From the NCBI GenBank assembly GCA_004022145.1, contig RCNU01000033.1: a stretch of 43,800 nucleotides of DNA; one strand, written 5' to 3'. The DNA is from Paecilomyces variotii (Eukaryota). A program made the translations under genes and the position numbers. Within the stretch, counting starts at the first letter, position 1; each line of letters begins with the position of its first letter. Shown here piece after piece: positions 6,201 through 42,900 of this stretch. Under the pieces are notes generated by a model, which was not told where the DNA came from, did not search any database, and saw nothing but the letters and a program-made list of their open reading frames with translations.

Positions 6201-7050
6201 CCTTTATATATTTTTTTTATGCTTCTTTAGGGGTTTTTATAATAATACTCTTTAATAACTTCTTTTTATTTTAATAACTCTCCTAAAGCTATTATAAGTT
6301 TATTTAATATATTTATTAGATAAACCTTTTTATATTTCTTTTTATACTATATATTAATAGAATATTTTATTTTTATAATAAAAAGGTTATACCTTTTAGA
6401 CAGTTTATACCCCTATAATCTTCTGACTTTTTTGTTTAATTTAGTAAGTTTAAATATCTCTATCCCTTTATTTTCAATTTCCTTACTTGCTCTAAAGCTA
6501 ATATTATTTATTAAATATAGCTCCTATAGGCCTTTTTTATTCCCAGTCTAATATCTATTATTCTTTTCTAGCTCTAGTTTAATAACTCTTATACCTAGGA
6601 TAATAGATTATGCAATATCTTTTCCCTTAACTTATTTTTTAGATTATTTATTAAAAATACCTGAATAATAGCTTAATTCTTTTAGTTTATAAAATAAATT
6701 ATATTCTTTATTATCCTATCTAATAGAGCAATATACTATAGATATGCTTAATATTTAAAAGGCTGTCCTAGAATATAATTATAGTTAATCTTATTATTTA
6801 CTATAAAAAAAGAGATTTTATAATAAAAAGATCCTATTTATATAAGTATTTTTTTATAGAGACTTATAAAAGGGGTTTGCCCGCTATCTACTAATATTAT
6901 ATTATTTCTAAATTTTTAGCTTATAATAAGTTTATAATAATTTGCTATATCTTTATATATTATATTAATTTTAGCTCTACTATCTATTATAATATTTTAT
7001 GCTTTTTTATATCTATTAATTCTAATTAGTAACTTTAAAATTGCGGCTAT
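3260..7050 (-). pseudogene. pol: Family A pol relic (protease, reverse transcriptase, integrase)
   Basis: De-RIPed readings: protease IDSGAEIN (6973-6984); RT DLFSGYDQ...RLPQGWTN...FLDD (5500-5511) followed by GPKT.Y..E..PGIRRFVFEH; IN AKFLWEDWICRWG and PYNPQANGVVE (~3800-4070); GPY/F-type RWLGPYKI...GSYKLEELDG (~3290-3420). Ends approximate. Confidence 0.85.
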
Positions 7051-9332
7051 ATATAGCACCTTATCTTTATTAAGAGGCTTAAATTATAAGGATATATAAG
7101 TATATTAATTCATACTGTTTATTATATATTTTATATTTAATATAGAGGCATTAAACTATACTCCTTTAATATTATAAAATATCGCCTTTATTATTACCTA
7201 CTATAATTGCAAGGTAAATAAGGCCTTATATAAATTAAGAGATAGACTAATAAGGTCCTAAATTAATATCTGAACTTTAGTATTTAATATTTAATTTATA
7301 ACCCCTATTATATTAGTAATTCCTTTTAACTTATTTGCAATTTTAAATCTTTTTAACTTTTATTTTTTTTTATCTTAATAATCTTTTTATCCTTATTTTA
7401 TTTAGGCATATTCTTTATTTCTTCTTTAATTATCTTTATTTTTTTAGTTGTGCTTAAAGGCTAATAATTGCTAAATTAGTTTATCTTAATTAAAGGAAAT
7501 CTCTATTTTTATTTAATTGCTTTCTGCAGCTTTTCCTTATATAATTATTTAGTCTTACTTTACCTTTTCTTTACTTTTTAGGGCTTATCTAATCTTATTA
7601 TATTAATAAAGTAATAATTTTTTATAATATCCCTAGCTTTTTCTTTAGAGCTTAAGTTATCTCTAGGCTGTCTTAGTATAATTAACTAGATATTATACCT
7701 AATTAAGCTAATATTTTTTTACTCTTCCTTTAGTCTTTATTTAATAATTTTTTTTATAATATATTTCTTTATATAAGATAAATAACTTCTCTATTCTATC
7801 CTTCTAACTTAAAGTAAAGTTTATAATCTTCTTCTTAATAGATAAGCTTCTGATTTAAAAGGCTTTTTAAATCTAGGTAATAGGATTAAATATAATTAGG
7901 AGCCTAGTAAAAGTTATATAAGTTTAAAGATATTTTAAATCTTCTAGTCAGATTAAATCCTAAAGGCGCTTTAGCTTATATATTTATATTAGTATTAGGC
8001 ATATTACTATTAGGCCTCCCTATATACTATATATTATATAGTTTTAACTTCTTAAACTCTTTTATTAATTAATTAATCTATAACTGCTTTATTAACTTTA
8101 CTTTAATGCTTTATTGTTTAGTCCTATTCTTATTCTTATTTAAATAAATTCTATTAAGTTTAATAAGAAGTTATATATTATCTTCTTTAATTACCTTCTC
8201 CTTTATTAAAGCTATTATATCTTAATCTTTTTTTAGTTTATTATTATTAAGATAGTAAAGGGTTTTAATTATTTTTACCCTATCTATTACCTTCTTATAG
8301 AAATTAGTATATTTAATAATAGACAGAATATAATAGTCTATATTTAACTCCTAAATTATTTACTGCTTAAGCTCTTTTAAAAGTTTTTAAAGATATTAAA
8401 CTCTTTATAAATATTAGCTTAATTTATCTAAAGTTATTAGTGCTTCTAATATAGCTTAATATTCTTAGTTATACTTTTTTAGGTCCTTAGAGCTATTATA
8501 TTTTATATTTTTAAACCTTTCTAATTATTAGATATTATATTTCTTTTAATATTTATTATAATAAGTATATTTTTATTTAATTGCTTCTGCCAATTTTAAG
8601 TAGTTCTTCTTTTTATATTTAGGTTAAATATTTATCTATAATAATATTAATAGGCTATAATAGTCTGCAAACTATTTAGTTTTTTCTTTTTCTAGGAGTT
8701 AATTTGCCTTATATAGCCTTTTAAAAAGCCTTAGATAATAAGTAATATTATTCTCTTTAAAATATAATATCTTAAGATTTTTAAGCATTAGTATTTATAG
8801 AGCTAATATAATCTAGATTAATTATACTATTAATAATTCTGTATTTTTAGATACCTGAGCTGTCTATACCTTTAGACCTAGTAATATTAAGGAGCTAAGA
8901 GTCTTTTTATCTTAACTAATATTAAAAAGATTAGTGTTTTTTTCTATATTTTTTTAAAGGAATAATAATAAAGATAATAATAAGAAATTCTTCTACTTTT
9001 TAATAAATAGTTCTTACTTAGTAATTTCTTATTCCTTTTAATTTTCTAATTCTCTTTTATACTTATTAAGCTCTTCCTTATATTTAATAGTTTTTTTTTT
9101 CTCTTATTATTAATATATATTTTTGCTTTATATTATATTTACTGTCTCTGCTAATTTAAGAGGTATATTTATTTCTTTTTATTTATAGTAGTAATTTTCC
9201 TTAGCTATTTTACTTATCTTTTTATTACTTCTTATCTCTTTCTTTAGCTTTAGCCTTAACCTTAGCTTTTAATTCTCTTTTCTCTCTTATTTTTGCTTAA
9301 TATTTTAATACCCCCTATATTTAGCTCTAATT

Positions 9333-9658
9333 TATTATAGGAAGATATATTAAGACTTAATATAGAGTCTTTAAGTAAGTAGATATTAAGAAGGAAGAGA
9401 AAGATATTTAGTTTCAGAGCTTAGAATAGAGCTAGAGAAGAAGCTCTAGCTATAAACTAATATAGTAAACCAGTAATAATCTAATGCTAAACTAATACTG
9501 AATAATAATAGAAAGAAAAAGCTGCTTATTTTATTCTAAATAACTAAAAGGTATTATCTCCTTTCTCCTGCTTTGCTTATAAACTTTTTAAAGACTTTAA
9601 GCAAAAGCATATAACCTCTTGACTAATTATATTCTTTATACTAATTCTCCCTACTACA
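9333..9658 (-). repeat. 5' LTR of family A (326 bp)
   Basis: Plus strand reads tattatagga...ccctactaca (RIPed TG...CA). Homologous along its length to the solo LTR at 33923-34266. Confidence 0.8.
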
Positions 9659-9737
9659 ATAGATAAAGGGAATTAAGAACTATTAAAACTTTAAAATATA
9701 TTAAATAACTTTAGCCCAGAAGAAAATATAAGAAATT

Positions 9738-12700
9738 CTGCATTAAAAATAATATACTTAAATCTAACTTAAGTTAAAATTTACTTAAAAAGTCTAATTA
9801 TAATAATATAAAAGTATTTTATCCTTAAAACTTTCTATTTTTCTTTTTTTTCTTATTATTAGTAGAGTAATTATATAGGCGGTTCGGTTCGGTTTAGGGG
9901 GGGGGTTAAACCGCCTGTAGCGGTTTTCGGTTCGGGGTAAATAAACCGTACCTAAACTAAACTATATACTAGTAGTTCAGTTTAAAACTAAAAAAACCGG
10001 ATTGGCATAATTAGTTACTAACCTAAGTTAGATCCGGTTATGTAACTATGCTCTAGCTATATTAGGATAAATAAGCGAAAATTACAATACCGTAATTTAC
10101 CGGTTTCTAATATATTTTTATTATATATACTAAATACTATAGTAATTTTATACCTCTAATATAAGTATCGATAAATTACATAGTGTAATTTAAATACGAT
10201 GTTAAAATTACGGTTCAAATGGTTTAAACCAAAAACCACCGGTTCAGTTCGGTTCTGGTAGACTCGCACCGCGGTTTACTAGGAAGCGAACCAAACCGAA
10301 CCATAGGCGGTTCGGTTCGGTTCGGTTCGGTTTTTTCGGTTTACTATAACCACTCTAATTATTAGATATTTTTTAAAACCTATCTATATTAATATTAATA
10401 AGCTGAGTCTAATTAATAAATTATAAAATAATATATTTAAAATAGGTTAATAGTAGTATTTTAATCTATTATACTTAGATTACTTATTATATTAAAAAGC
10501 TAGTCTTTAGAGTTAAGATTTTTTATAAATATTATATTTTTAAATAAGCGCCTATTTAAATATAACTTAGGTTAAAATTTATATTTACTATTTACCCTTT
10601 TATTTTGCTAGGTAATCTATTATATTAATAATATAAAATAATAGATTATAAGATCTTATTAATTGCCTATTATTACTATATTAAAAATTATTTTACTTAT
10701 AAAGTTCTAACTTAAATTAGTTTAATTAAACTATAAGAACTATTATTATTATAACTTATTATCCTCCTAAAATTCTTATCTTTTAAAAATCTTAATTAAT
10801 ATTTACTTATTTTATCTTTCCTTTTTTTTATCTTTTTTTTCCCGCTAAAGCCTATTTAAATTAGTTTAAATTATTTTACTGCTCTAATTCTATTATATTA
10901 TTTATATTAAATCTATAGTCTATAATAAATTAATCTTAGATTTAATTTAAGTTAGATAAAATATACTTATCTATAAGTAAGCTCTAATAAAATCTCTTAA
11001 GATTTTTTATTTCTTATACAGTAAGTTAAGATTTATATATCTTAATTATTCTAAGTTTTCCTGCTTCTTTTTTTATTTTTTATCTTTTATTAGTTCTTTT
11101 TTAAATAAAAGTTTAATAAATAGACTTAGCTTTATTACATATATCTTTTTCTATTCTTAAATAGCTTTCTAAATAATTAGATTATAATTAATAATATATT
11201 AGGCTAGTAATTTATTAATATTGTTAATATTAAGCTCTTAATCTTATTATATAAATAAATTAGCTATCTCTTATAAAGCTCTAAGATAATTATTCTACTT
11301 CTCCTATATTAAGTTAATATCTAACTTAAGTTAAATTAATAATATATATACTTTATTTTAGATAAGATTCTTTTCCTAAAAGTTAGCTTTCCCCTAGCCT
11401 AATTTTAATATTTTAATTATGCTAGTTTTTATATATTAGTAAGTCTATAATATCTCTAATAGATTAGCCTTCTTCTTTAATTCTTTCTTATAATATCTTA
11501 AGATATAAATATTCTTAATATTATAGTTCTATTAAAATTATATTCTTATAGTTATATTTTTAAAATCTATAAAAATCTATATATAATTGCCCTATATTGT
11601 ATTAGTTTTAACTTAAATTAGTTTTTTTAAAACTTATAATCTTAATAGTATTATTAAACTTTTTTATAATACTCTTAAACTTATCTTTAATTATTTTTAA
11701 GTATTTTTATAAGACTCTTACTTAATAATAATAATTAAATTATAATAAATAAGTTTAATACTCCTTATAGCAGTCCTTATTCTCCTTAATAATATCTATA
11801 TCTTACAGTATATTTAGCAACTTATTTAGCTAAAAAGAATTAGTCTAAATTCTAACTTAAGTTAAATAAAGGCTTATATTTTATTTTAAGTCTTGCTAGC
11901 CTTAATAAGGGTCTTTATAAATCTTATTAAAAAGCATATTAATAAAGTATATAATTATATTAAGATCCTCTATAATAAGAAATAAAGTTAACTAAAGTTT
12001 ATAGGCCTACTAAAATATCTTTAAATAGTTAAATATAAGAGATAAATAATACTATTTTAATTAGTACTAAAATATTATATATTTAAATATAGCTTTTAAC
12101 AGATTAATTACTTTATTCTATAATTTAACCTATAAGTTCCTATAACTAGTTAATATTATATCTCTAATATTTAACTTAAGTTAAATCTTATTAAGAAGAG
12201 AACTTAAGGTTCTTATTCTTATATAAGTTCTTTTATATTATTATATAGTCCTTATTATTTAATATAATAAGAAATCCTAGTCTCCTTATAAGGTTCTTAA
12301 AAAAGGAAACCTTTATTATTAACTATAATAAAAATAGTTTAAAAAACTACTTTTTATTTAGAGTAAGATATAGCTTATTTCTCTTATAATTAGACCTAGA
12401 TAGGAAGAATAATATTCTTAGCATATTATTACTAGCTTAATAATAATAATTAATAATAAATTACTAATTATTTATTAAGATATAAATGCTAAACTTCTCT
12501 ATAAAGATCTTTATAGCTTATTCTTTAAATCTTTTAAACTTAGCTTTTTAAATCTAACTTAGGTTAAAATAATTAAGAACTACTAAGTAATTTTCTTAAC
12601 TTATATAGTCTAATTTTAAATTAATTATAAGCTTACTAAGAATAAAGTTATAATACACTCTCCTATATAAAGTATAAATATAGTCTAAAATCTATTATAT

Positions 12701-13470
12701 TTATAAATCCTTTTATAAGAGAGCTTAAGCATATACTATATATTTTAATAAAACATTAATAACTAGCTAAGCCTACTTTTTAAAATTATCTATATTTTTA
12801 AGTAACTTTCTCTATTATATTTAATCTTTTTATTTAAAGGCCTAAATTAAAGCTAGTATATATTCCTTATCTATATTAGATCTCTCTATCTCCTTATAAT
12901 TTAAGCATAATATAGTTAATAATTCTATATTTATCTTCTCTTTATTATAGATATTAACCGCCTATAACTAGGCCTATTAATCTATAATTAGCTAAATTTT
13001 AACTTAAATTAAAATAGAGATATATATTAAGACTTAGCTTTTAAATAGTTCTATTTTTAAGAGTTTTAGTATAAGTAATAACTGCCTAAGTCTGCTTAAG
13101 CAAAAGCTCTAATAAAATAGCTTAATAATATTACCTCACTTAAAAAATAGGTTTCTAAATAAAATCTGGCTATTTATTAAAATAAATAAATATATCTCTC
13201 TCTATTCTATTTTTAAAGCGCGCGATATTAAAAGCCTCCTTATATACCTCTATAGTATTAGCATTATCTATATTATTATTTTTAATAAAGGTCTTAATAA
13301 CCTGTTTAAAGTCGCTGTATTCTATTATTACTTTTATCTAAATGCTAATATTTTACTATTAAATAGCTACTTAAAATTCTTACTTTAAATTCTTTATATA
13401 ATCTTTATTAAGATTATAATTTTTTTTTATCTTTCTATTTGCTATCTAGATTTTATATATTAATATATAA
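9738..13470 (-). pseudogene. Multi-intron gene relic of unknown function inside the hAT arm
   Basis: Short introns with RIPed GT donors, branch-like sites and YAG acceptors: 9738-9784, 10920-10970, 11304-11351, 11592-11637, 11830-11877, 12140-12191 (weaker: 10552-10595, 12531-12583, 12982-13026). The exons between them are 333, 240 and 192 nt, all multiples of 3, and read as a helical protein. Outer limits are uncertain and there may be more than one gene. Confidence 0.65.
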
Positions 13471-15640
13471 AGTTTTAAGAAATGCCTCTTTAAGTTTTAG
13501 TTAAACTATATTCTTTTAAAAAAAAAGAAAGATTAATAAAGCTATCTCTATTAAACTCTGCTTAGCTAATTTTTTTTTTTAATAATATTATAAGAGTAAT
13601 AGACTTAAGTAGTAAACTAGTTTTAAACAGTATTTTAATTTTAATTTAGGTTAAAATATATAGTCTAGTAGGTTAAGATTATTAAAAGATTTTATACTAA
13701 GACTATTTAGCTAAAGTTTATTTATAAATAAACTAGGGTTTTTAGAGGGCGGTAAAATAGATTAAGGGTTTTAGTATTTAGTAAAATAGTCTAGAGGTTC
13801 TTATTTCTATAAATCTTATAATAGGATAGTTAAATCTGCAGTATTTTAACTTAAGTTAGAATATAGACTACTAAAATAGAGATTAAGAGCTTATTATACT
13901 AAGAGTCTTAGAAGAATTTAAATTAAGGTAATAATATCAATAAGATATTATTTTATTCTTATAGGATTTCTTTACCTGTATATAAAAAGCTAATTCTAAC
14001 TAAGTTAGAATTAATAAGAAAAATATAAAAAATATATTTAGGGAAAGAAATAAATATAATAGGAAAAAAATAAAATTAATTTATATAGTCTATAACTTAT
14101 ACTAGTCCTAATTAAGAAGTTAATATTCTAACTTAAGTTAGATTATACTAACTATCTATCTCTTAATTAACAGTAGAACTTATTATATAAAAAAAATTAT
14201 TACTCTCTTACTTTTTAGCAGAGTATACTTCTTAAGATAATAAACCTAAAGGTTTTAGCAGAAACTTTTAGTATATTCTAACTTAAGTTAGAATATAAAA
14301 TTTAGATTCTTTTCTTAAATTTCTTATATAGAGAACTCTTAATAAAAATTATTACTTCTTTCTTATTACTTTATAGAAAATAATTATTCTTCTTTTAAAA
14401 TTATTCTATTTAACTTAAGGGTATTAAAAAATTAAATTAACCTTAGATTACTAGCTTCTTAATAGCCTATAATATAGATTTAAATTTAATTATTCTTAGA
14501 GAGTTATTTATTAATCCTAAGGTTATTATATTTAAAATCGCTATATTTCTTACTTAATTTACTAAGCTTAATAATTTTAATAAGATTAATAATAATTCTT
14601 ATATTTACCCTTACTTTCTTTTTTTTCTTAATACTACTTAAAAGGTAAATTAGCAAACTTTATTGCCTAATATTAATATATAAAATATATATTTCTATTT
14701 ATAGGCTACCTAAAAAAACTACTAAAAAGTCTAGCTTACTATATTTAATATACCTATAAAAATATAGGTAGCTAATTTAATTTAGAACTAATAAATCTAG
14801 TATATTTAAGGAATTACCTTAATTGCTTCTCTAAAGCATTATAATAAAAAAAAGTATTTTTTAATTTAAGATTATAATCTACAAGACCCTAGCTAAAAAT
14901 AACTATATTAATTTCTTCTTTTAGTATAGAACTATTTCTTAAAATTAATAAGAAAAAAGACCTTAATTTTATCTTTATAATACTATATTAATAAAGCTAA
15001 ATTAGGGTAAAATAAGTATCTTTAATATATTATAAAATAGTTAAGTCTAATAGCTTAAATAGGGGATTATCTATTATAAGAGAATAATATTCGACTTAAA
15101 AACTATATCTAAATAAAAAAGAAATAGTTAAGAGTATAATATAATTTTAATAATTTTAACTTAAGTTAGATTTTTAATAAGTTATATAAGTATATAAGAT
15201 TTTCTTTAGAAGTTATAATTTATTAATTATATATAGATTTTTTATTAACTTATTAAGAGAATAATTTAGAAAGTACTTTTTATTTAAAACAGTAATAATA
15301 GTTAAATATATATTCTTTAGTTTAATAACTTAAGCTTTTAAAAAAAATTATATATTATATATAATAATACTATATTAGCATTATAGTTTATAAATATATA
15401 TATTTCTATAGCTATAACTCTATATATATATATATTTAATAATATCTTAAAAGACTTTCTTTATAGTTTTACTTTTAAATTAATATAATAATATTATATT
15501 TAAACTATTTTTTAGCTATAGATTTAAAGATCTATAACTAATAATAATATAAAATAATATAAAGCTTTAATATCTATAATACTGTAAACTATATAAATTA
15601 TTTAAACTAAACTATTTAAGTTAATTTAACTTAAGTTAGT
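9763..15640. repeat. Dispersed 16-bp palindrome TCTAACTTAAGTTAGA (variants T(C/T)TAA(C/T)(C/T)TA(A/G)(G/A)TTA(G/A)A)
   Basis: Copies start at 9763, 10561, 10706, 10941, 11320, 11607, 11851, 12170, 12553, 12998, 13640, 13845, 13995 (1-nt deletion), 14127, 14277, 15155 and 15625. Further copies at 23057, 23675 and once in each hAT MITE (~10017, ~21254, ~41513). Confidence 0.9.
9863..10357 (+). mobile_element. hAT-type MITE (495 bp), copy 1
   Basis: TIR TAGAGT(GG)TTA...TAACCACTCTA; 8-bp TSD attattag (9855-9862 / 10358-10365); subterminal (TTCGG/CCGAA)n arrays. Confidence 0.95.
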
Positions 15641-15803
15641 TTAGCACATAATCTTAGTAAATACTTTAATTTTTTCAGTTTTAAACTAAACTACTAGAAT
15701 ATAGTTCAGTTTAAGTATAGTTTTTCTGCCCTAAACTAAAAACTGCTACGGGCGGTTTAACCCCCCCTTTAAACTAAACCGAATCGCCTATATAACTACT
15801 CTA

Positions 15804-18800
15804 TTCTAGATTAAATTTATAAATAGTATAATTATCTTAAAAAAGTTATAAATAAATTAATTATAAAAGTTATTAAACCTAATAAAAGCTTATATATTAA
15901 TTATATAAATTAAGGTCTTCTATTTAATAATTATTTTTACTTTATTTAAGTTTATTTTAATATAATCTTAGCTAATAATAATACTTAGAATTTAGTCTTA
16001 GAGATAATAAACTTATATTTTTAAATCTTTATATATAAGCTTACTTTATATAATTTCTATAAGATAATATAGATATATTAAATATATTTAGAATAAGTTA
16101 TATTATATATTAAGATATTATTAAGATATATAGTATAAAAGATATTAAGATAATCTTATAGAGTATTATTAATAAATTATTAAAATATTACTAGAGCTCT
16201 TATTAGATTAAATAATATTATTAATAATTTAAATAGGCTAAGTTAAGTATAAAAGGCAATTAAATATTCTTATTTCTTCTTAATATAAAGGTTATTAAAT
16301 ATAGAAATAATATTAATCTTTATAAAATACTTTATCCTTTTTAAATTATTTAAGGTCTCTTTTATTAAAAATAAAAGATATTAATCTTTAATAGTTATTA
16401 TATCTAGAGCCTAATAGTCTATATAGATTTATATTCTTTTATTAGACTTTTTAATAGATAAGATTAAAGATATAATAAGTAAGGAATTTAAGCAGATAAA
16501 TTCTTTTCTTAGGTTTTTTTAATCTATTTTTTTAAGACCTTTAATTTATCTTAAACTATAATATATAGGGGCTTAAAGGAGAGTAATTTCTCTTTTAATA
16601 GCTTAATATTATAATTATAAAAATAATATAATAATAAGTACTTAGCCTTTTTTAAAAAAAAATATTAATATAATTCTTAAATTTCTTAAGTAATAAGTAA
16701 GTAAGATCTTTTTTTTAAATTTATTTAATCCTTAAAATAGTATTTAAGTCTTTTAAGGTAATTATAAATATTTAAATATTTTTTTAAATATAGGCAGAAT
16801 AGGCAGCTAAAGAAATAAAGGCTATATTTCTTTTCTCTAATTTTTTAAGTCTTAAAGATAAGTATTAAGGTAAAGCTTTTAAAAAAATATTATATAAAAT
16901 AAATATTTTAATTAGCTTTAAAAGCATATTATAATTTTTTTAATAATAGTTATTATTAAAAGTAATATTATAAATAATAAATTATAAGTATAAGTTATAA
17001 TATTTTAATTAGAAAAGTTTTAAAATAATAGAATAGTATACTAATTAAATAATATAAAACTTAGCATTCTTTTTAAAATAATTTTTAATTCTTATATTTA
17101 TCTAGATATAATATATAATTTTCTAATCTTTTAATTCTCTTTTATTAAATATATATAAAGTAATTAAGTCTTTTAAAAGAATAAGCTCTAACTTTTAATT
17201 CTTAGCTTATCCTTAATCTATAAATTCTTATTTTTTAGCTTTAATATTAAGTAAGGTATAAATTAATAGATAAACCTTTTTTTTCTTCCTTTTTAATATT
17301 ATAAATAATATTATTAATTTTAATTATTATAAATATTCTTTAAGGTTAATTCTATAAATAGTAGCAGTAAAAATTTAAATAATATATAATTTTTAAGCTT
17401 AGCTACAATTTAATCTAGGCTTATTTCTTTTATTAAAGATTAATTAGAAAATAAATTATATAAGTTTAAGAACTATATTACCTAAGAAGTTTAAAAGCAG
17501 AATTTATATATAATTATAATCTAAATCTTCTAGTAATTATTAAAGTATAAATAATCTTTAATATAGTATTTAAGGGAATTATAATAAAAGTAAGTATTAA
17601 TTTTATAATATAATAAGCTATATTCTTTCTTGCTTAAGCATTTAAAAATACTTAAATTTATAGGGTTATATAGTTATACTAGGGCCGGCTCCTCTCTCTA
17701 TATAGAGTTTTTTTAAGGCTAAGTATAAATTCTTACAGTAGGGATAAAGTTTAAATTAAATATAAAGAGCTAAGTATATTAAACAGGCTTTAAAATAATA
17801 TTATAAGTCTTTATAATAGAGAATTAGTTTATAATATATTAATAATAATAGTTCTTAAGATCTTATAAGAATTTAATAAACTAATAATATTTATAATTTA
17901 GAGATTAACTATATAATAATATTCTTTAAAATTCTTAATTAATAGCTTATTTAAATAGAATAAATAATATTTTTTTAAATATCTTTTCTTCTAGTACTAA
18001 ATATTAGAACTTAATAAAAAAGATTTTAAACTTTTTATTAATCTAGTAGAGATTAAATAATTTACTATATATATTATTTATATAATTAAAATTATTAAAT
18101 ATATATTTTAAGAGATCTAGAATCTCTTAATAATTATTAAAAATATAAGTTTTATTTTTAATATAGAGTAATACTTAAATATAAAATACGCCCTTTAAGT
18201 AATTAATTATATAAATTATATAACTTTAAAAGATTAAAAATTAGTCTTAATTAATTATTATCTTTTCTTAGATTTAAGCTATAAAGTACTAAAAGTCCTT
18301 TTAATTGCCTTTAAATTTATTTAGGTTTAAAAATTATTTTAAAAATCTAGGGGTAAAAAAAGTATAATAATAAATATTTTAAGTATTTCTATTAAAGTAA
18401 CTATAAGTTTCTTAATACTAAGCTTAAGTTTAAATATTAATAAAGATATATTTATAATAAATATAATTATATAATAAGCTTAATTCCTTTTAAGAATAGC
18501 CTAAATATATTATTATTTCTTTTTTTAAAGCTAAGTCTTTTAATATTACTAAATAGCCTTAAATTTAATAACTTCTTATTTAAATCTCTATTAAATAATA
18601 ATAAATTCTTATTAAAACTTTTAAAGGTATATTTTAGCTTAATAATTTATTTTATTTATAATAGTCTTAGCTTTACTAATATATTTATATATTAAATAGT
18701 AATATTTATATTATTTTAGCTTATAGCTAGCAGTAATATATTTAATAAATTTATTCAAAGTAATTAGCAGAAATAAGAAAATTAAGGTAAATATCTTTAA

Positions 18801-19137
18801 TAATATTAACTTTTAAGTAAGAAGCTATATAATATTAAGATATAGGCTTAAGAAATAAGTTAGAATAAATAGAATAAGATAATTAATACTAGGATTAGCT
18901 ATAAAATCTTTATCTAGCTAATTTAGATTAGAATAAGCTATTGCAGATAAACTTAATAAATAAGATATAGCTTAAAAAGCTTAAATCTAGATTAAGCTAT
19001 ACGCTAAAGATATCTTTTATAAGGTTATATAATTCCTTATATAATTTAGAAGAATTAGGCCTTATTCTTCTAAATTAAATAAGCATTAGCTAGTAGATTT
19101 TCTTAAGTAACTTATCTCTCGCGCTAATACTATAATA
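15804..19137 (-). mobile_element. Gypsy family B, 5' half (5' LTR, gag/PR region, RT), degenerate
   Basis: LTR at 18833-19137; RT LDIFCTAYLDDILIYS (YLDD at 16117-16128). Colinear with 26421-27238 and with the reverse complement of 39950-42972. Confidence 0.88.
18833..19137 (-). repeat. Family B LTR (305 bp)
   Basis: Same sequence and length as 22012-22316, 23714-24018, 32884-33188, 33487-33791 and 39950-40254. Confidence 0.92.
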
Positions 19138-21099
19138 CTAGTCTAGTTTTAAAGCCTTAAAAAAAGTATTTATTTAAGCCTTAATCTTAAAGCTATTTAA
19201 TTAAATCTATAAGATTATAGTTAAAACTAATTTATCTAATTATATATTAGCTAGAGTTATATCTTAATATAATAATAAAGAAATCTTATATCTTATTATA
19301 TTTTTCTTAAAAAAGCTTTTTATTATAAAATATAATTATAAGATTTATAATAAAGAATTATTAATAATTATTTACTATTTTAAAGAGTAATACTCTAAGC
19401 TTAAAGGTATATTATTACTAATTAAAATTATTATAGACTATTATAATTTAAAATACTTTATATTAATTAAGCTATTAAACTAATAATAAGCCCGCTAATT
19501 TAAGTTTTTATCTTAGTTTAACTTCTAAATTATATATTATTTAAAGAAGTAAAAAATAAAGCTTAATACTCTAACTAAAAGGTTAGAAGATCTTTTTAAA
19601 GAGACGGATAAATAGTAATAATATTAGAGTTAAATAGTTTTAAAAAAAGAACCTTAACTTATAGATTTAAAATTCTTTAAAATTAAAAATTATTATTAAA
19701 AGTTAAATAATAAGATATATTTACTTTATTAACCTAATAGCTTAAAAGATTAGAAATCTTATTAAACTTATAGAAATATCTACTTAATTTATCTTAAAAA
19801 GCTAAATTATTTAATTTAAAAAATCTACCTAGTTTATTTTATTATCTAATTAGTTTATTAAGATTATTTAATCTATTAAAGAGATAAGCTAGCTTATTAA
19901 AGAAATTATTTTACTTATTAAAAAAATAGCTTTACCTATTAAATAAAATTAGCTAAATTTCTCTATTATATTTAATAAGCTAGAGTTTTTATTTAATATT
20001 AAGAATTTACTAGATATAGCTTATTTATTTAATAACTTAATATAATTTATCCTATAAGCCCTAGATTATAAAGCTAATTATTACCTTAAGATTATATTAG
20101 CTAATTATTAATAAAAAAAAGATATTTATATTATAAAGACTATTTATATATTCTTAACTATAATAAGCTAAAAGCCTACTTATTATAAGAATATTATAAT
20201 AAGTATATATTTAAATACTTTAGAAAATATAAGCTTTATAATTTAATCTTATAAAAGTATTATTAGCTAAATATATATTAATATATAAATTATTAGACTT
20301 AAAATTACTATATTTATTATTATATTATACCTTTAAATAAAGGCTATTAAGAAGTCTTATATTAACTCTTTATCTCTAAATATTTTTAATAAGATATTTT
20401 AATAGATTTTATTATTAGACTTATACTTTATTAAGATTATAATATTATATTAATTATTATAAACTAACTTATAAAGATAAAATATTTTATACTTTATTAA
20501 GCTATTTATAATATTAAAGAAGTAATATAATTATATATCTATTATATATAGAAGCTTTATAAGTTATTAAAGATTATAATATTTAATTAAAATCTTTAGT
20601 TTATTACTACTTTTTAAAAATATTTAATTTAATACTTAAATATTATAAACTTATTATTTATTATTTATTACTCTAAGATTAATAATTAAATAAAAAAAAT
20701 AAATATTATCTTAAAATAATATTTATATACTTATATTAGCTATTTATAAGATAATTAAGTTAATTAGCTATCTTTAATTAAGTTTATATTAAACTTTTAT
20801 TATTCTAAGATTATTAAAATATTACCCTTTTTTATTAATTATAGGTTTTATTTATATATAAGATTTAAGCTTATTTAGCCTATAAATTAGCTTATTATTA
20901 AAAATACTAAAGCCTTTATTAAAAAGATATAAGATATTATAAATTATATTTATACTTAGATTTATATTATTTAAGCCTATTATAAAGAATAGACTAATTA
21001 TTATTAAATCTTAGCTTATTATTATTATATAAAATAGTTTATTTAATTAAATGCCTAGAATATTTATACTTAATATCTTTAGAAGAAGCTTAACTAAAA

Positions 21100-21594
21100 T
21101 AGAGTGGTTATATAGGCGGTTCGGTTCGGTTCAGGGGGGGGGTTAAACCGCCCGTAGCGGTTTTTGGTTCGGGGCAGATAAACTGTACCTGAACCGAACC
21201 ATATACTAGTAGTTCGGTTTAAAACTAAAAAAACCGGATTGGCATAATTAGTTACTAACCTAAGTTAGATCCGGTTATGTAACTATGCTCTAGCTATATT
21301 AGGATAAATAAGCGAAAATTACAATACCGTAATTTACCGGTTTCTAATATATTTTTATTATATATACTAAATACTATAGTAATTTTATACCTCCGATATA
21401 AGTATCGATAAATTACATAGTGTAATTTAAATACGAGGTTAAAATTACGGTTCAAATGGTTTAAACCAAAAACCACCAGTTCGGTTCGGTTCTGGTAGAC
21501 TCGCACCGCGGTTTACTAGGAAGCGAACCAAACCGAACCATGGGCGGTTCGGTTCAGTTCGGTTCGGTTTTTTCGGTTTACTGTAACCACTCTA
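21100..21594 (+). mobile_element. hAT-type MITE (495 bp), copy 2 (least mutated)
   Basis: TIR TAGAGTGGTTA / TAACCACTCTA; 8-bp TSD aactaaaa (21092-21099 / 21595-21602). Confidence 0.95.
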
Positions 21595-22011
21595 AACTAA
21601 AAAAAACTTAGCTTATTTTATATTATTAAGATTATTAGCCTATATATTTATTAGCTTAACCTATCTATTTTAATATATATTTATCTTATATTTAATATTA
21701 GTCTACTTTATCTTATTACTAAGAACTCTATACTTAAATAAAGATAGCCTTTATTATTACTTATTAAAGTTAATAGCCTTAAAGAATAAGTTATTAAAAA
21801 TATCTTAGATTTTTAATAGAAATATTATAGCTATAAAGGCCTTTAATTATAATATATTATTAAATAAATAAGTTATAATAATTTAATTAAAGAACTTATA
21901 TATTATCTATAATATACTTAAGAGATTATTATAAACTTTTATTATTACTACTTAAATAAGCTAAAATTAGAAAATAGTCTTAATAAAGCTTAATTTTAAG
22001 AAAAGAAGTAT

Positions 22012-22316
22012 TATTATAGTATTAGCGCAAGAAATAAATTACTTAAGAAGATTTACTAGCTAATACTTACTTAATTTAAAAGAATAAAGCTTAACTCTTT
22101 TAAATTATATAAAGAATTATATAATCTTATAAAAGATATTTTTAGTATATAGCTTAATTTAGATTTAAGCTTTTTAAGCTATATTTTATTTACTAAGCCT
22201 ACTTATAATAGCTTATTTTAGTTTAAATTAGCTAAATAGAGATCTTATAGCTAGTCTTAATATTAACTACTTTATTCTATTTATTCTAACTTGCTTCTTA
22301 AGCCTATATCTTAATA
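22012..22316 (+). repeat. Family B 3' LTR (305 bp)
   Basis: tattatagtattagcgc...cctatatcttaata; preceded by a PPT-like tract. Confidence 0.92.
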
Positions 22317-23300
22317 AGTACTAATTAATTAAAATTATTACTTCTTAATTACTAAATATAATAGAATTTAATATATTTTATATTTATATATACTCTTAAA
22401 CTATATATAGTAATTAAATAATTTATTATATTATAAACTAATAAAGATATTTATTTTTTAATATTATCTCTTATTAAATAATATTAGATTAAATATTTTA
22501 TTAAATTAACTTAGCTATTCTATAATTTTACTCTTATTATATTAAAGATAAATAATCTATTAATTTATAGAGTTTTTAAAATTTATAATATTATCTTTAA
22601 TTATCTTAATAACTATATAAAATACTTAAAATTAAAAAAAGTTATATAGAAGATATAACTTTAAAATACTTTATTTAAAGCTTATAATAAGTTATAAACT
22701 TATTATATTAAAATATATAAATCTTAAGAATTTATATATATAATTATAATAATTCTTTACCTTAGTTTAAAGCTTAAATATTTTAAAACTTAAATCTAAT
22801 AAAATATAATAAAAAACTAGTATAATACTTATAAAAAGATTTTTTATAAGGTATTTTAATACTATAATAATTAAAATCTAAATATTAAAATATAATTAAG
22901 AATTTATTTATTAGTCTTAATATTAGATTATATACTTATATAATTTAAATATTATTATCTCCCTTTAAATATTATTAATACTTATTAAGAAATTTAAACT
23001 TATTTTATTAAAAATAATATTCTATTTAATATTATACTTAAATTATATAGTATTATTCTAACTTAAGTTAAATTAGCTTTATTAAAATTAAATAATATCT
23101 TTAACTATTAAAAAATTAATAAATATTAATTTCTAATTCTTATAATAATAGCTTAAGATTTTCTTATAATCTTATTAAGTAATATTAGTATAGAATAATT
23201 ATTTAATAATACTTAAAATATCTACTATTATTAATATAATTAATTACTTTTTAATATAATTTATACTTTAATACTTCTTATATATATTAAAAATTTTATT
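22317..23300 (+). pseudogene. hAT transposase relic (C-terminal half, with hATC dimerisation domain)
   Basis: De-RIPed readings: TRWNST (ata taa tag aat tta ata, 22356-22373); PFYDFTL..SK....SIHRVFEIYN.IFDHL; KL.TYY.KT....VYAIATIL.P..KL.YF; YWK.NE..FP.LA.MARDFLAIPSSGVGVERLFNSARDICHYRR.RL.P.TI (~23100-23280). One intron at ~23014-23076. Confidence 0.88.
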
Positions 23301-23713
23301 ATTTAGCAAGAGTTTAAGATAATAATTAATAATATAAATATAATACTTAATTATTAATAATCTAAAAAAAAGAGATTAAATTACTAAATTTAATTAGTAA
23401 TAATAAGAATATAAATAATATATTAAAAGAAGAGATAGAGGTTAATAATAAGAACTATTAAATAAAGCAGTTTAAGAGTTAAAATCTTTTAAGTATTTAA
23501 ATAGATTAACCTATTACTAACTCTATATATAATAAAAAAGAATTAAATTAATTACTTATACTTAAAGCTTCTATATATTCTTAAAGAAATATAATAACTA
23601 TAAATAAATTTAAGTCTTTTAATTATTACTTATATTAGATTAACTATATTAAAGGCTAATATAAATATTAATAATTTAACTTAAGTTAGATTTAATTATT
23701 AAATTCTAATATT

Positions 23714-33922: not shown

Positions 33923-34266
33923 TATTATAGGATAAAGTATTAAGACTTAGTAATAAGTCTTAGAGTATAAGGAAATAGAGGAAGAGAAGAAGAGCTTTAT
34001 TCTTTAGGGCTTAAAGTAGAGTTAAAAGAGAAACTCTAATAATAAAGTAATATAATAAGTAGAAGCTGCTTTATTATTAAACTAATATTAAATAATAACT
34101 AAAGGGGGAACTGCTTATTTTATTCTGTATTAATTAATTAATACTCTTTTATTCTCCTCTCTACCTTATTAAAAGTATTTAAGCTACCTCTTCTAATAAT
34201 AGTATATAACTTGCTAATTTAATTATATCTTCAGAACCTCCTTAATTACTATTTCTCCTTACTATA
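33923..34266 (-). repeat. Solo LTR related to family A (344 bp)
   Basis: Similar to 9333-9658; 4-bp TSD atag (33919-33922 / 34267-34270). Removing it restores the RNase H reading of D. Confidence 0.82.
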
Positions 34267-39949: not shown

Positions 39950-42900
39950 TATTATAATACTAGTATAAGAAATAAGTTACTTAAGAAAATCTACTAGCTA
40001 ATATTTACTTAATTTAAAAGAGTAAGGCTTAACTCTTCTAAATTATATAAGGAATAAGATAACCTTATAAAAAATATCTTTAATATATAGCTTAATTTAG
40101 ATTTAAGCTTTTTAAGCTATATTTTATTTACTAAGCTTACTTATAATAGTCTATTTTAGTTTAAATTAGCTATATAAAGATCTTATAGCTAGTCCTAGTA
40201 TTAACTATCTTATTATATTTATTTTAACTTACTTCTTAAGCTTATATCTTAATATTATATAGCTTTTACTTTAAGAGTTAATACTATTAATAATACTTAC
40301 TCTAATTCTTTTATTCTTGCTAATTACTTTAAGTAAGTTTATTAAATATATTATTATTAGCTATAGGCTAAAATAATATAAGTATTATTACTTAATATAT
40401 AAATATATTAATAAAGCCAAGGCTATTATAAATAAAATAAGCTATTAAATTAAAATATATTTTTAAGAGCTTTAATAAGAATTTATTATTATTTAATAAT
40501 AATTTAAATAAGAACTTATTAAATTTAAAGCTATTTAATAATATTAGAAAACTTAGCTTTAAAAAAAATAGTAATATATTTAGGCTATTTTTAAAAGAGA
40601 TTAGGCCTATTATATAATTATATCTATTATAAATATATCTTTATTTATATTTAAATTTAAATCTAATATTAAGAGACTTATAGCTACTTTAATAGAGATA
40701 TTTAAGGTATTTATTATTATATCTTTCTTTATTCCTAGACTTTTAAAATAACTCTTAAACTTAAATAAGTTTAAAGATAATTAAAAGAACTTTTAGTACT
40801 TTATAGCTTAAATCTAAGAAAAAATAATTATTAATTAAGACTAATTCTTAACCCTTTAATACTATATAGCTTATATAATTAATTACTTAAAAAATATATT
40901 TTATATTTAAATATTGCCCTATATTAAGAATAGAACTTATATTCTTAATAATTATTAAAAGATTTTAAATCTTTTAAAATATATATTTAATAATTTTAAT
41001 TATATAAATAATATATATAATAAATTATTTAACCTCTATTAAATTAATAAAGAGTTTAAAACTTTTTTTATTAAGTTTTAGTATTTAATATTAAAAGAAG
41101 AAATATTTAAAGAAATATTATTTATTCTACTTAAGTAAGCTATTAATTAAAAGCTTTAAAAAATATTATTATATAATTAGCCTCTAATAGAGTAATTATA
41201 GTAAACTGAAAAAACCGAACCGAACTAAACTAAACCGCCTATAGTTCGGTTTAGTTTAATTCTTAGCAAACCGCGGTATAAGTTTACTAGGTTTAAACTA
41301 AACCGTTAGTTTTTAAGTTAAACCGTTTAAACTGTAATTTTAACCTCGTATTTATATTATACTATATAATTTATTAATACTTACTTTAGAGGTATAAAAT
41401 TACTAATATATTTAGTATATATTATAAAAATATATTATAAATTGGTAAATTACAGTATTATAATATTCGCTTATTTATCCTAATATAGCTAGAATAAGGT
41501 TATATAACTAGATCTAACTTAGGTTAGTAACTAGTTATACTAATTCGGTTATTTTAGTTTTAAACTAAATTACTAGAATATAGTTTAGTTTAAGTATAGT
41601 TTTTCTACCTTAAACTAAAAACCGCTATAGGCGGTTTAACTATCCCCCTAAACTAAACTAAACTGCCTATATAATTACTTTAGCCTCTAAGTTATAAATA
41701 TTATTAATTTACTAAATTCCTATAAGATTTTAAGAATTATTATTATTAATATATTATAAATTAATTCTCTATTATAAAAATTTATAATATTATTTTAAAG
41801 CTTATTTAATATATTTAATTCTTTATATTTAATTTAAACCCTATTTCTATTATAAGAACCTATATTTAGTCTTAAAAAAATCTTATATAAAAAAAGAAGC
41901 TAGCCTTAATATAGCTATATAATCTTATAAATTTAAGTATTTTTAAATATTTAAGCAAGAAAGAATATAGCTTATTATATTATAAAACTAATATCTGCTT
42001 TTATTATAGCTCTTTAAAATATTATATTAAAAATTATTTATATCTTAATAACTATTAGAAGATTTAAACTATAATTATATATAAATCTTATCTCTAAACT
42101 CTTTAGATAATTTAATTCTTAAACTTATATAATTTATTTTTTAATTAATCTTTAATAAAAAGAGTAAGCTTAAATTAAGTTATAGCTAAGCTTAGAAATT
42201 ATATATTATTTAAATCTTTATTACTATTATTTATAAAATTAATCTTAAAAAATACTTATAATAATTAAAATTAATAATACTACTTATAATATTAGAAAAA
42301 AAAAGAAGATTTATTTATTAATCTATACCCTATTTAATATTAGAGCTAAAAGATAAAGATTTATAAATTAAGAATAGGCTAAAGACTAGAAGTTAAAGTT
42401 TATCCCCTTAAAAGATTTAATTATTCTATATATATTTAATAAAAAAAAACTAAAGAATAAAAAGATTATATATTATATCTAAATAAATATAAGAATTAAA
42501 GATTATTTTAAAAAGATACTAAGTTCTATATTATTTAATTAATATATTATTCTATTATTTTAAGACTTCTCTAGCTAAAGTATTATAACCTATACTTATA
42601 ATTTATTATTTATAATATTATTTTTAATAATAATTATTATTAGGAAAATTATAATATACTTCTAAAGCTAATTAAAATATTTATTTTATATAATATTCTT
42701 TTAAAAGCTTTATTTTAATACTTATTTCTAAGACTTAAAAAACTAGAAAAAAAAATATAGCCTTTATTTCTCTAGCTACTTATTTTATTTATATTTAAAA
42801 AAATATTTAAATATTTATAATTATTTTAGAAGACTTAAATATTACTCTAAGAATTAAATAAGTTTAAAAAAAAATCTTACCTGCCTATTATTTAAAAAGT

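Follow-up and report, generated by a model that had tools for sequence, protein, structure and literature searches.

A repeated 16-bp palindrome in a RIP-mutated hAT-type transposon of Paecilomyces variotii, a candidate dispersed DNA site

A 16-bp palindrome, TCTAACTTAAGTTAGA in its perfect form, is a real and unusual repeated DNA signal in one dead, heavily mutated hAT-type transposon. The study covered one window of one genome, the window being the whole 43,800-nt stretch of contig RCNU01000033.1 of Paecilomyces variotii (GCA_004022145.1). Quite possibly the palindrome served a dimeric protein as a double-stranded DNA site that was scattered along the element, belonged to the hAT family itself and was kept to non-coding DNA by its stop codons in all six frames. 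A candidate protein-binding site remains the most economical reading.

Palindrome copies in a RIPed element

The palindromes are found in a long element that is bounded on one side by a hAT-type terminus:

9690..15803, no strand assigned: long RIPed element with palindromes, right end homologous to the MITE end
15670..15803, minus strand: hAT-type terminus that repeats the first 134 bp of the MITE in RIPed form, with TAGAGTAGTTATA as inverted end
9863..10358, plus strand: un-RIPed 496-bp MITE of the same family, inserted in the long element

With the MITE and one of its two target duplications subtracted, the long element measures ∼5.61 kb. Its left end is a junction with another repeat and no terminus, the homology of 9333-9690 to 33923-34290 stopping near 9690. 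The right terminus matches 9861-9941 exactly over 81 nt in purine/pyrimidine space. The inserted MITE is flanked by the 8-bp target duplication ATTATTAG (9855-9862 and 10359-10366) and carries one palindrome variant at 10017-10032, and its copy at 21100-21595 is flanked by AACTAAAA. The MITE has 8-bp target duplications and TAGAG... inverted ends, and the ends of the family are rich in AAACCG/CGGTTT, a candidate transposase-site motif. The terminus is common to the MITE and the long element, each with a palindrome ∼155-180 bp from it. The hAT association proposed in the earlier note is thus supported by the terminus at 15803 and by the related MITE with its 8-bp target duplications. A Pfam search of all six frames of 9000-15800 gave 0 families, with no transposase, recombinase or DNA-binding domain found in the element, and a PDB sequence search with the three minus-strand frames of 9690-13037 gave 0 matches; the lack of a transposase or DNA-binding domain in these searches counts against the DNA-site reading.

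The following copies were identified in the window (no strand assigned; from the mismatch search unless described otherwise):

9763..9778: TCTAACTTAAGTTAAA
10561..10576: TATAACTTAGGTTAAA
10706..10721: TCTAACTTAAATTAGT
10941..10956: TTTAATTTAAGTTAGA
11320..11335: TCTAACTTAAGTTAAA
11607..11622: TTTAACTTAAATTAGT
11851..11866: TCTAACTTAAGTTAAA
12170..12185: TTTAACTTAAGTTAAA
12553..12568: TCTAACTTAGGTTAAA
12998..13013: TTTAACTTAAATTAAA, 25 nt downstream of the verified exon's final codon
13640..13655: TTTAATTTAGGTTAAA, RIP-tolerant search, carries 4 transitions and lies 315 nt upstream of the verified exon's start codon
13845..13860: TTTAACTTAAGTTAGA
14127..14142: perfect palindrome TCTAACTTAAGTTAGA, exact search
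14277..14292: perfect palindrome TCTAACTTAAGTTAGA, exact search
15155..15170: TTTAACTTAAGTTAGA
15625..15640: TTTAACTTAAGTTAGT, sub-terminal, ∼165-180 bp from the terminus; the MITE copy lies at a near-equal offset
21254..21269: variant ACTAACCTAAGTTAGA in the MITE copy 21100-21595
41513..41528: variant ACTAACCTAAGTTAGA, inverted, in the MITE copy 41185-41679
23057..23072: copy within a 1.4-kb core that shows weak similarity to 15120-15650 of the long element
23675..23690: copy in the same core

Exact matches were restricted to 14127 and 14277 in the whole window, a count of 2 that 0 of 100 shuffles reached. When up to three mismatches were allowed, 25 matches were obtained in the window compared to 4.03 ± 1.82 in shuffles (maximum 9), and the stretch from 9763 to 15640 holds 17 of them. 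The RIP-tolerant form T[CT]TAA[CT][CT]TA[AG][AG]TTA[AG]A has 14 matches in the window, 12 of them in 9700-15810, a span of 6.1 kb for which 0.03-0.17 copies (maximum 1-2) were expected from 500 Markov simulations at each of the orders 1-5. The word AACTTAAGTT is present 9 times in the long element vs 3 times in the remaining 37.7 kb. Altogether, 16 copies are found within ∼5.6 kb of otherwise unique DNA. The recurrence described in the earlier note therefore stands, but the perfect form does not recur, as all copies except two are variants with 1-4 mismatches, and the spacing, given as ∼150-650 bp, is irregular and spans 145-878 bp. Across the 16 copies, the inner 14 bases depart from the consensus by transitions (C>T/G>A), save for one transversion at 10561. 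The flanks of the copies have nothing in common, neither as nucleotides nor in purine/pyrimidine space, in agreement with the claim that the segments share the palindrome only, and a search for other dispersed purine/pyrimidine motifs revealed no second enriched one. Outside the long element, copies were found only as one per MITE (3 MITEs) and at 23057 and 23675, and none was detected in the Gypsy-like part (1-9000) or the other repeats. As had been claimed, the palindrome is within the window specific to one hAT-related element family.

The palindrome is a perfect dyad with 6-bp arms (TCTAAC/GTTAGA) and a 4-bp centre, TTAA, which is the usual geometry of homodimer sites. Read directly, it contains no CpA, TpG or CpG, and because of this it was spared by RIP. 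RIP of the palindrome-bearing DNA is itself borne out by a GC content of 16-24% over the long element, and the motif is still recognisable there because the preferred dinucleotides are missing from it while all surroundings were mutated. A pre-RIP form with CpA/CpG, as proposed earlier, is not supported: among the TA positions of the 17 mismatch-search copies, 0/51 keep CA, TG or CG, and the un-RIPed MITE copies read ACTAACCTAAGTTAGA beside intact CpG and CpA. This MITE form, with differences at two positions, is shared by 3/3 MITE copies.

It was considered whether AT-rich low-complexity DNA could yield the same word repeatedly, by chance or as a convergent RIP product, since the AT content of the window is extreme and RIP drives many sequences towards T/A words. 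However, even a fifth-order model leaves the 12 observed copies far above expectation, and many of the 16 copies retain C/G at the fixed positions 2, 6, 11 and 15 (14/16 at position 6, 7/16 at positions 2 and 15). Moreover, the palindrome is present in an un-RIPed MITE, and ∼30 kb of other RIPed repeats contain no 16-mer match to the RIP-tolerant form. Such an origin is extremely improbable, and it was rejected as the mismatch and RIP-tolerant searches both lie far above the simulated background.

Coding relic and intron-shaped segments on the minus strand

The earlier note had placed a gene on the minus strand, and a relic of one was indeed identified:

13038..13325, minus strand: verified coding relic of 96 codons, homologous to residues 1-96 of an orphan Paecilomyces variotii protein

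The homology is documented by phmmer (E=1.6e-12), by BLASTP (36% identity over 96 residues) and by a RIP-aware score of 253 vs a null maximum of 51, and 76/96 codons are reachable by C>T/G>A changes. The start codon is mutated from ATG to ATA, and the relic contains 7 in-frame stops, opposite W, Q, R and one K. It is the sole exon verified in the long element. Since it begins at the start codon of the paralogue, 6/16 palindromes lie upstream of this position, including the one in a supposed intron at 14108-14152. The homology ends at codon 96, inside the first exon of the paralogue and 22 codons before its first intron; no RIP-derivable GT was found after the last matched codon, and the remainder of the paralogue could not be detected anywhere in the window.

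All seven intron-shaped segments that had been listed on this strand are present where they were placed, with GT or AT starts and YAG ends, and the three exon lengths (192, 240 and 333 nt) are correct. A fourth adjoining 'exon', 10596-10919, is 324 nt long and also a multiple of 3. When RIP-tolerant donors were combined with YAG over 44-59 nt, 9/16 palindromes were enclosed on the minus strand vs 3.35 at random positions (P=0.002), and 6 were enclosed vs 3.6 expected on the plus strand, which is not significant. Several minus-strand segments carry CTAAT or TTAAC, branch-like, 11-15 nt before YAG, and in 5/9 a G directly follows the segment (both read directly). The minus-strand enclosure fits introns and counts against the DNA-site reading.

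These observations and the coding relic would suit a multi-exon minus-strand gene with one palindrome per short intron, either as a parked DNA site or as an intronic RNA hairpin, and the four consecutive inter-segment lengths divisible by 3 (324, 333, 240 and 192) point in the same direction. However, by simple arithmetic at least 4/6 such lengths have P ∼0.1, and with a strict GT donor the enclosure falls to 5/16 on both strands. Stops make up 12-13.5% in every frame of the four in-phase 'exons' (49/363, 44/359, 49/359) vs 7.3% in the verified relic, a test of low power in this element as the relic itself has 7/96 stops in the true frame and 6/95 in another. For these 'exons' neither Pfam nor the PDB sequence search gave a protein family or homologue. 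In addition to the upstream copies, one palindrome is sub-terminal, in non-coding DNA, and another belongs to a MITE; that copies are thus not solely intronic counts for a DNA site. A retained 51-nt intron and two longer read-through stretches of the paralogue keep an open frame and presumably cannot contain the palindrome, since a stop codon interrupts each of its three frames on both strands. These stops confine the palindrome to non-coding stretches (flanks, spacers, any introns), and by themselves they would make it look 'placed between exons'.

As RNA the palindrome is weak, which counts for a DNA site. The bare hairpin has −3.8 kcal/mol, and 8/9 intron-shaped segments fold no better than shuffles, with one showing a z below −2; the hairpin alternative raised earlier is weakened accordingly. 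With one exon verified, 6/16 palindromes upstream of it and strict-GT enclosure equal on both strands, the described placement in 'intron after intron' was not demonstrated. Placement of palindromes in introns of a gene is possible, and the full multi-exon interpretation appears rather unlikely.

Origin of the copies and the candidate DNA site

Sixteen near-identical 14-mers in otherwise unique DNA might also have arisen as insertions of a tiny mobile or repair-generated unit, functionless and spread shortly before RIP; a micro-element, a degenerate introner-like unit or end-to-end joined 8-bp termini are candidates. Precedents are introner-like elements, which are quick to degenerate (PMC3609843), and Hypoxylaceae introns, which have strong internal symmetry and proliferate without flanking duplications (PMC8469720). 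However, no consistent target duplication was found at unit sizes of 12-20 nt; the sole nominal excess (unit 14, 3-nt flanks, 6/18) arises because the outer T and A are fixed. The palindrome lies anywhere from 0 to 32 nt from a putative splice site, all copies in the window belong to one element family, and the two-position difference is fixed in the MITEs. We know of no mechanism that inserts a bare 16-mer, and such an origin is judged unlikely.

The relic also prompts a reading of the long element as a mosaic of captured fragments with palindromes at the junctions, where cassettes would have been recombined or captured. Homology to the P. variotii protein covers the first 96 codons only and ends inside an exon, 25 nt from a palindrome, and the inter-palindrome segments are unrelated to one another. 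Against this, a single junction could be examined, no recombinase was found by Pfam in six frames, and no source was detectable for any other segment. A dyad of 6-bp arms and a 4-bp centre is short in comparison with known site-specific recombination sites, and the mosaic is considered quite improbable.

The favoured reading, a dispersed DNA site, would regard the pre-RIP palindrome as a cis-element of 14-16 bp, essentially invariant within one hAT-type family, with at least 16 copies over at least 5.6 kb of the long member, one per 496-bp MITE and two in a related fragment. It would have acted as double-stranded DNA, as the site of a dimeric sequence-specific protein, possibly the family's transposase or another element or host factor, and many sites could have loaded this protein along the element. 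BED-type fingers of hAT relatives bind short palindromes. Against this reading, 16 identical 14-mers exceed the usual yield of binding-site evolution, and the copies may instead have a copy-and-paste origin.

Comparison with known systems

MATE elements of Aspergillus nidulans, reportedly described by Clutterbuck in 2004, are said to be DNA elements of roughly 6 kb in a Eurotiales fungus, with RIP-mutated copies, dozens of copies of a short palindromic word along their length, only short ORFs without homologues, the 8-mer RWCTAGWY as word and target duplications of 9-10 bp. The present element resembles them as a RIPed DNA element of similar size in a Eurotiales fungus, with a scattered short palindromic word, but its word is a 16-bp perfect dyad and its family's target duplication is 8 bp. 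RWCTAGWY is not enriched in the long element (3 copies, 0.53 per kb, the same density as elsewhere in the window).

Sub-terminal transposase-binding repeats of hAT elements (Ac AAACGG, Hermes GTGGC, Tol2 AAGTA-type) are non-dyad sites of 5-6 bp, clustered within a few hundred bp of each end. Similarly, many copies of a short word in a hAT-type element would give multivalent protein binding, and the family has an AAACCG/CGGTTT-rich terminus; unlike these repeats, the palindrome is a 16-bp dyad spread over at least 5.6 kb. Since known hAT sites are short and end-clustered and the family has such ends of its own, the palindrome would be a second kind of site, and to our knowledge no hAT precedent exists for a site spread over a whole element; both points count against the DNA-site reading.

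Pack-MULE-type transduplication is the capture of gene fragments by non-autonomous DNA transposons. A transposon-bounded non-autonomous element with the 5' part of a gene and an intact relative elsewhere is reminiscent of it; here, however, capture is suggested by a single fragment in an element of which one end was seen.

Introner-like elements of Dothideomycetes and other fungi are likewise multi-copy sequences tied to short intron-shaped segments; they have stable predicted structure, degenerate, resemble one another over their full length, exceed ordinary introns in size and are distributed over many genes, whereas here 14-16 nt are shared in 44-59-nt segments with weak folds in one element family (PMC3609843). 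Hypoxylaceae stwintrons and related introns have pronounced internal symmetry and proliferate without flanking duplications; in them 45-55-nt terminal inverted repeats span the intron and splicing was verified, in contrast to a 16-bp dyad at a variable place in merely intron-shaped segments (PMC8469720).

Repeat setting and limits of the hAT-type element

The GC content was 11-27% across the whole window, and the RIP indices were 1.25-1.47 for TpA/ApT and 0.00-0.48 for (CpA+TpG)/(ApC+GpT), values that are the hallmark of repeat-induced point mutation (RIP). From a self-comparison of the window, nested decayed repeats and two short, hardly mutated element families could be identified.

Features of the window used in the analysis
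1-9000, minus strand: Gypsy-like retroelement (RT_RNaseH, E=1.6e-4)
~4780-5100, minus strand: Gypsy-like RT/RNase H relic (PF17919, E=1.6e-4)
9863-10358, 21100-21595 and 41185-41679 (inverted): 496-bp MITE with the inverted ends TAGAGTRRTTATA

Stop codons made up 2.5-5% of the Gypsy-like coding frame compared to 13-22% in the other frames, and this lower density makes the relic useful as an internal reference for coding DNA altered by RIP.

The MITE is flanked by 8-bp target site duplications, ATTATTAG around 9863-10358 and AACTAAAA around 21100-21595. For the third copy (41185-41679), (TTA)GAGGC was found on both sides, with the left flank partly within the aligned range. The terminal inverted repeat TAGAGTRRTTATA is common to both MITE ends and position 15803, and AAACCG/CGGTTT is abundant in the MITE ends. 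Members of the hAT superfamily carry short terminal inverted repeats that begin with YARNG. Such repeats were present at the MITE ends and at 15803, together with the 8-bp duplication of the MITE, and the MITE is presumed to be of hAT type from its inverted ends, 8-bp duplications and AAACCG/CGGTTT-rich ends, features which we take to be diagnostic. The three copies are 81-96% identical and nearly free of RIP within RIPed DNA of 13-20% GC; the copy at 21100 is mutated least, and the copy at 41185 has RIP-like CG>TA changes. As the copies sit in already RIPed repeats, the MITE family was active after those repeats had decayed. A second short GC-rich family of ~528 bp (27230-27757, 37779-38306 and 42973-43501; mutual identity 97-99%) has inverted arms of ~59 nt (27249-27307 and 27689-27747), is un-RIPed and lacks the palindrome.

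Positions 15670-15803 correspond to the first 134 bp of the MITE in inverted, RIPed form and include an exact match of 81 nt in purine/pyrimidine space, which RIP cannot alter. This indicates that a longer relative of the MITE terminates at 15803. On the left side, the homology between 9333-9690 and 33923-34290 ends near 9690, so that the palindrome-bearing DNA, here called the long element, corresponds to 9690-15803. It measures ~5.61 kb when the later MITE insertion at 9863 is subtracted, and a single terminus lies within the window. A possible older second copy of its left part (34926-35356 versus 9821-10761) scored 118-131 against a null maximum of 97-125 and was rejected as too weak. The same 0.8-kb repeat (15811-16619 and 26428-27238, 88% identical) begins right after the hAT terminus at 15803 and right after the right arm of a large inverted duplication (19136-22323 / 23707-26395; arms of ~2.7 kb, identity 89-90%); both abut the same repeat boundary. 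The left arm of this duplication is interrupted by a MITE.

The six translations of 9000-15800, with X in place of each stop, matched no Pfam family, in a search whose sensitivity is limited by RIP, and a PDB sequence search with three minus-strand frames of 9690-13037 gave no hits. Accordingly, no BED finger, RNase-H-like core or hAT dimerisation domain was matched in Pfam or PDB; the RIPed Gypsy control gave only RT_RNaseH. The long element may be non-autonomous or truncated. Rfam returned no matches at E up to 0.1 for 9000-16000, the tRNA scan returned no genes, and the MITE end pattern was found in no stretch of a metagenome scan. Between 36 and 78% of the words were present in six sequencing runs labelled organism A (three studies), with at least half in five of them; small shares in grain and food-fermentation metagenomes and shares of 6-8% in two metatranscriptome runs are uninformative on habitat or expression.

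Distribution and pre-RIP form of the palindrome

The earlier note described a perfect 16-bp palindrome recurring through this DNA. The perfect form was found only at 14127 and 14277 in the window; what is dispersed are its variants. With up to three mismatches, 25 matches were obtained compared to 4.0 ± 1.8 in shuffled sequences, and 17 of them lie within 9763-15640. A RIP-tolerant form of the pattern has 14 copies in the window, 12 of which fall in 9700-15810, where Markov models of order 1-5 predict 0.03-0.17. With these corrections the recurrence was confirmed. The 12-nt core occurs 16 times in the long element and once per MITE copy. Two further copies, at 23057 and 23675, are located in a 1.4-kb core, whose weak similarity to 15120-15650 stems in part from the palindromes themselves; the Gypsy-like part and the remaining repeats of the window held no 16-mer match. 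The 1.4-kb core is flanked by the arms of the inverted duplication and holds the sole two palindromes beyond the long element and the MITEs. The motif is real and statistically solid, and resides in a dead hAT-type element. Chance or convergence under RIP is refuted by the mismatch search and the Markov expectation and has a practically negligible probability.

The palindrome and its shifts were the sole over-represented long words in the element, in nucleotide as well as in purine/pyrimidine space. Within the inner 14 bases, the 16 copies deviate from the consensus by transitions only, except for one transversion at 10561. No similarity was found among the flanks of the copies, purine/pyrimidine space included. 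A single between-copy match of at least 26 nt (27 nt) was obtained in purine/pyrimidine space, controls gave no fewer, and no longer repeats hidden around the palindromes could be detected there. A flank model scored 218 compared to 152-185 at random sites, a value inflated by the three identical MITE flanks. Sixteen identical 14-mers suggest a copy-and-paste origin, as would be expected from functionless insertions of a tiny palindromic unit; however, no consistent target duplication was found around the palindrome, and this explanation is considered quite unlikely.

The 16-mer contains no CpA, TpG or CpG, and its C and G residues stand in CpT and ApG contexts. As read from the sequence, CpT is largely spared by RIP in the window, so that CT-rich words are what remains. 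Among 17 copies from the mismatch search, none of the 51 TA positions keeps CA, TG or CG, whereas approximately one fifth would be expected to survive if these positions had been RIP targets, as estimated here from the RIP indices. The MITE copies read ACTAACCTAAGTTAGA, with CpG and CpA intact right beside the motif. Both observations indicate that the TA steps are ancestral. Therefore, the pre-RIP consensus is TCTAACTTAAGTTAGA or very close to it, and the CpG/CpA-rich ancestor proposed earlier was abandoned. The motif is visible because it is immune to RIP; a repeated word holding RIP targets would have blurred, and no second dispersed word was found in the purine/pyrimidine scan of the element.

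A minus-strand gene relic and the possible placement of palindromes in introns

When 13020-13640 was translated on the minus strand, each stop being set to X, and searched with phmmer against 1.84 billion representatives, a single match was obtained (E=1.6e-12), for which BLASTP reported 36% identity and 64% similarity over 96 ungapped residues. The matched cluster has nine members, and all eight named ones are annotated as 'hypothetical protein' of Paecilomyces variotii with 127-284 aa (here called the paralogue). The match spans the protein from its Met (ATG, now ATA, at 13325) to residue 96 (13038), and the stops in this stretch are aligned to W, Q, R and one K. Of the 96 codons, 76 match a codon for the P. 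variotii residue or could arise from one by C>T/G>A changes (shuffles 17.7 ± 3.7, maximum 32), and the RIP-aware alignment score was 253 compared to a null maximum of 51. Together, these results demonstrate that the minus strand once encoded protein here, as the earlier note had claimed. Within 13200-13330, this coding stretch includes a patch that still has CpG (GCGCGCG at ~13221) and is less mutated than its surroundings.

Other parts of the P. variotii models were not detectable anywhere in the window. The homology ends 22 codons before the models diverge at residue 118, a position taken to be the probable first intron of the paralogue, and the last matched codon is not followed by a RIP-derivable GT donor. 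On the simplest reading, the element contains the 5' part of an orphan-family gene, either its own decayed gene or a captured fragment. That the palindromes mark junction sites in a mosaic of captured fragments is considered very improbable.

No homologues of the P. variotii protein were found beyond the species, with near and longer lengths searched, and no Pfam family was assigned at default thresholds. A 20-residue stretch resembles SNF2 motif III (ATPFYNSVNDFFTLVRFI) with E=0.17-0.18 and 11 bits, compared to a Pfam cut-off of 24.9, and an Atlas feature match was weak (score 0.92, low shared-feature count). An SNF2-related domain was thus not recognised above the threshold, and 'SNF2-like' is kept as a lead only; that part of the paralogue is absent from the window. 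The paralogue models differ among strains (P0001-P0012), with 127, 129, 139, 187, 202, 236 and 284 aa; some retain introns and some split the locus. The paralogue may be a decaying or mis-modelled gene.

The earlier note further proposed one palindrome per intron of a cargo gene. The seven intron-shaped segments on which this was based are present and span 45-52 nt. Using a RIP-tolerant rule that was fixed after the data had been seen (donor [GA]T[AGT]AG[TCA] or GT[AT][AT]AT, followed by YAG at 40-65 nt), 9 of the 16 palindromes were enclosed on the minus strand compared to 3.35 at random positions (P=0.002); on the plus strand the 6 enclosed did not differ significantly from the 3.6 at random positions. 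Of the nine shortest enclosing segments, seven measure 44-48 nt; CTAAT or TTAAC is present 11-15 nt 5' of YAG in several, and in five of the nine a G comes next. Four consecutive spacers are divisible by 3 (324, 333, 240 and 192). However, with a strict GT donor, 5 of 16 palindromes were enclosed on each strand (1.1-1.5 expected), and such strand-symmetric enclosure is expected from weak extensions of the dyad, e.g., GTTAATAT-...-TTATACTAAC at 14129, and not from a stranded gene. The finding of at least four of six lengths divisible by 3 has P ~0.1 before allowing for the choice of boundaries.

Read as exons, the four in-phase spacers contain 49/363, 44/359 and 49/359 stops in the three frames (12-13.5% in every frame), compared to 7.3% in the true frame of the verified exon (13325-13038) and 2.5-5% in the Gypsy coding frame, although the power of this test is limited since the verified exon, when read in a wrong frame, contains 6 stops in 95 codons. 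Codon periodicity (chi-square) was uninformative, also for the Gypsy control. Moreover, six palindromes out of 16, those from 13640 to 15625, are located upstream of the verified start codon, one is sub-terminal at the same offset as the copy in the MITE, and the palindrome of the MITE has no intron shape.

In the intact paralogue, one model runs on in frame for 17 additional residues at the very point where another is spliced, which represents a retained 51-nt intron, and two more read-through stretches of 40-50 residues are open. Every frame of the palindrome contains TAA or TAG, so that it must be absent from these intervening sequences, which belong to a part of the paralogue that has no counterpart in the window. 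An RNA hairpin that co-regulates splicing is a weak alternative: the dyad would form a 6-bp A/U-rich stem of -3.8 kcal/mol, and in their RIPed forms eight of the nine segments folded no better than shuffled sequences (z -1.57 to +0.59; one below -2). Of the intron proposal, the seven segments and the minus-strand relic stand, but a single exon is verified and six palindromes precede the start codon. Placement in an intron is possible for some copies, is demonstrated for none and follows no general rule; one palindrome per intron is rather unlikely.

The dyad as a proposed dispersed cis-element and comparison with known systems

The reading tentatively preferred here, at somewhat less than an even chance, is that the dyad is a dispersed cis-element inherited with the transposon family and read as duplex DNA by a dimeric protein. 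It is suggested by the sequence pattern: the dyad is invariant, is present in the long member and in its MITE derivative, is irregularly spaced through unique DNA, is excluded from the verified open reading frame, cannot be coding in any frame and is too weak as an RNA hairpin. A dimeric protein is predicted to bind the dyads along the element; binding might serve to load transposase, or to coat or compact the element as the earlier note suggested, or might involve a host factor of chromatin or insulator type. Counting against such binding, AAACCG is already present in the family as a candidate sub-terminal motif of the typical kind, no binder or DNA-binding domain was found in the element, and the identity of the sixteen 14-mers points to copying. 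More speculative and distinctly improbable is a hAT lineage with a whole-length array of identical RIP-immune 16-bp dyads, in which copies that have lost their coding capacity to RIP could still be recognised, coated or mobilised by a dimeric transposase or partner protein, with sites tolerated in genes only in introns and spacers. What probability remains falls to none of the readings listed here.

If the dyads are a protein-binding array, this would be a fungal DNA transposon with multivalent sites along its whole length, not just sub-terminally, and a cis-element that passes RIP intact through its dinucleotide make-up, which bears on how RIPed relics might stay cis-competent or nucleate chromatin. 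If each copy marked an intron, the palindrome would represent a new type of signal associated with introns. For the present it is a well-documented curiosity of a dead element, and the question can be tested directly with the intact P. variotii paralogue.

The exact 16-mer was also found at at least 120 metagenome loci, with no motif array among the matches listed. Twenty-three loci chosen by flank pattern (L005, L009, L020, L023, L031 and others) aligned as a conserved intergenic region, and by eye more of the at least 120 share this context. The region lies downstream of the C-terminus of a LuxR-type response regulator (translated by eye), has 40-53% GC and contains GCGATCGC words; contigs rich in GCGATCGC are probably cyanobacterial, a hallmark that we assume. 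There the 16-mer is presumably an operator. These loci have no relation to the fungal element and represent a coincidence.

No description of the 16-mer was found in the literature searched. Matches listed for its 10-mer core and for 'Spe-motif' were unrelated, and none listed for hAT, RIP and palindrome was pertinent. On the intron side, the nearest analogues are introner-like elements, which according to PMC3609843 have copies similar along their length and stable predicted folds, and symmetrical stwintrons, for which PMC8469720 describes long terminal inverted repeats and verified splicing. The features of introner-like elements were not matched here: in contrast to their whole-length similarity, the flanks of the palindromes are unrelated, and a stable predicted structure (z below -2) was seen in one of nine segments, as RIPed forms.

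The sub-terminal repeats of hAT elements follow a like principle, but are short, non-dyad and terminal, whereas a 16-bp dyad is dispersed here. The nearest known analogue is the MATE elements of Aspergillus nidulans, which are reportedly ~6 kb in size, RIPed and without recognisable ORFs, and are said to carry dozens of scattered short palindromic Spe-motifs, clustered and of the form RWCTAGWY, a target duplication of 9-10 bp and, close to the ends, paired palindromes of 40 bp. The likeness lies in scattered short palindromic words within a RIPed element of ~6 kb, the MATE side being as reported. The Spe-motif occurs three times in the long element, at the same 0.53 per kb as in the remainder of the window, and the target duplication is 8 bp and not the 9-10 bp said of MATE; therefore, the long element is not a MATE. 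No 40-bp palindrome was visible at the 15803 terminus in the sequence and the end alignment. Transposons through which short palindromic words are scattered are already known, and the variant here is a RIP-immune 16-bp dyad in a hAT-type element.
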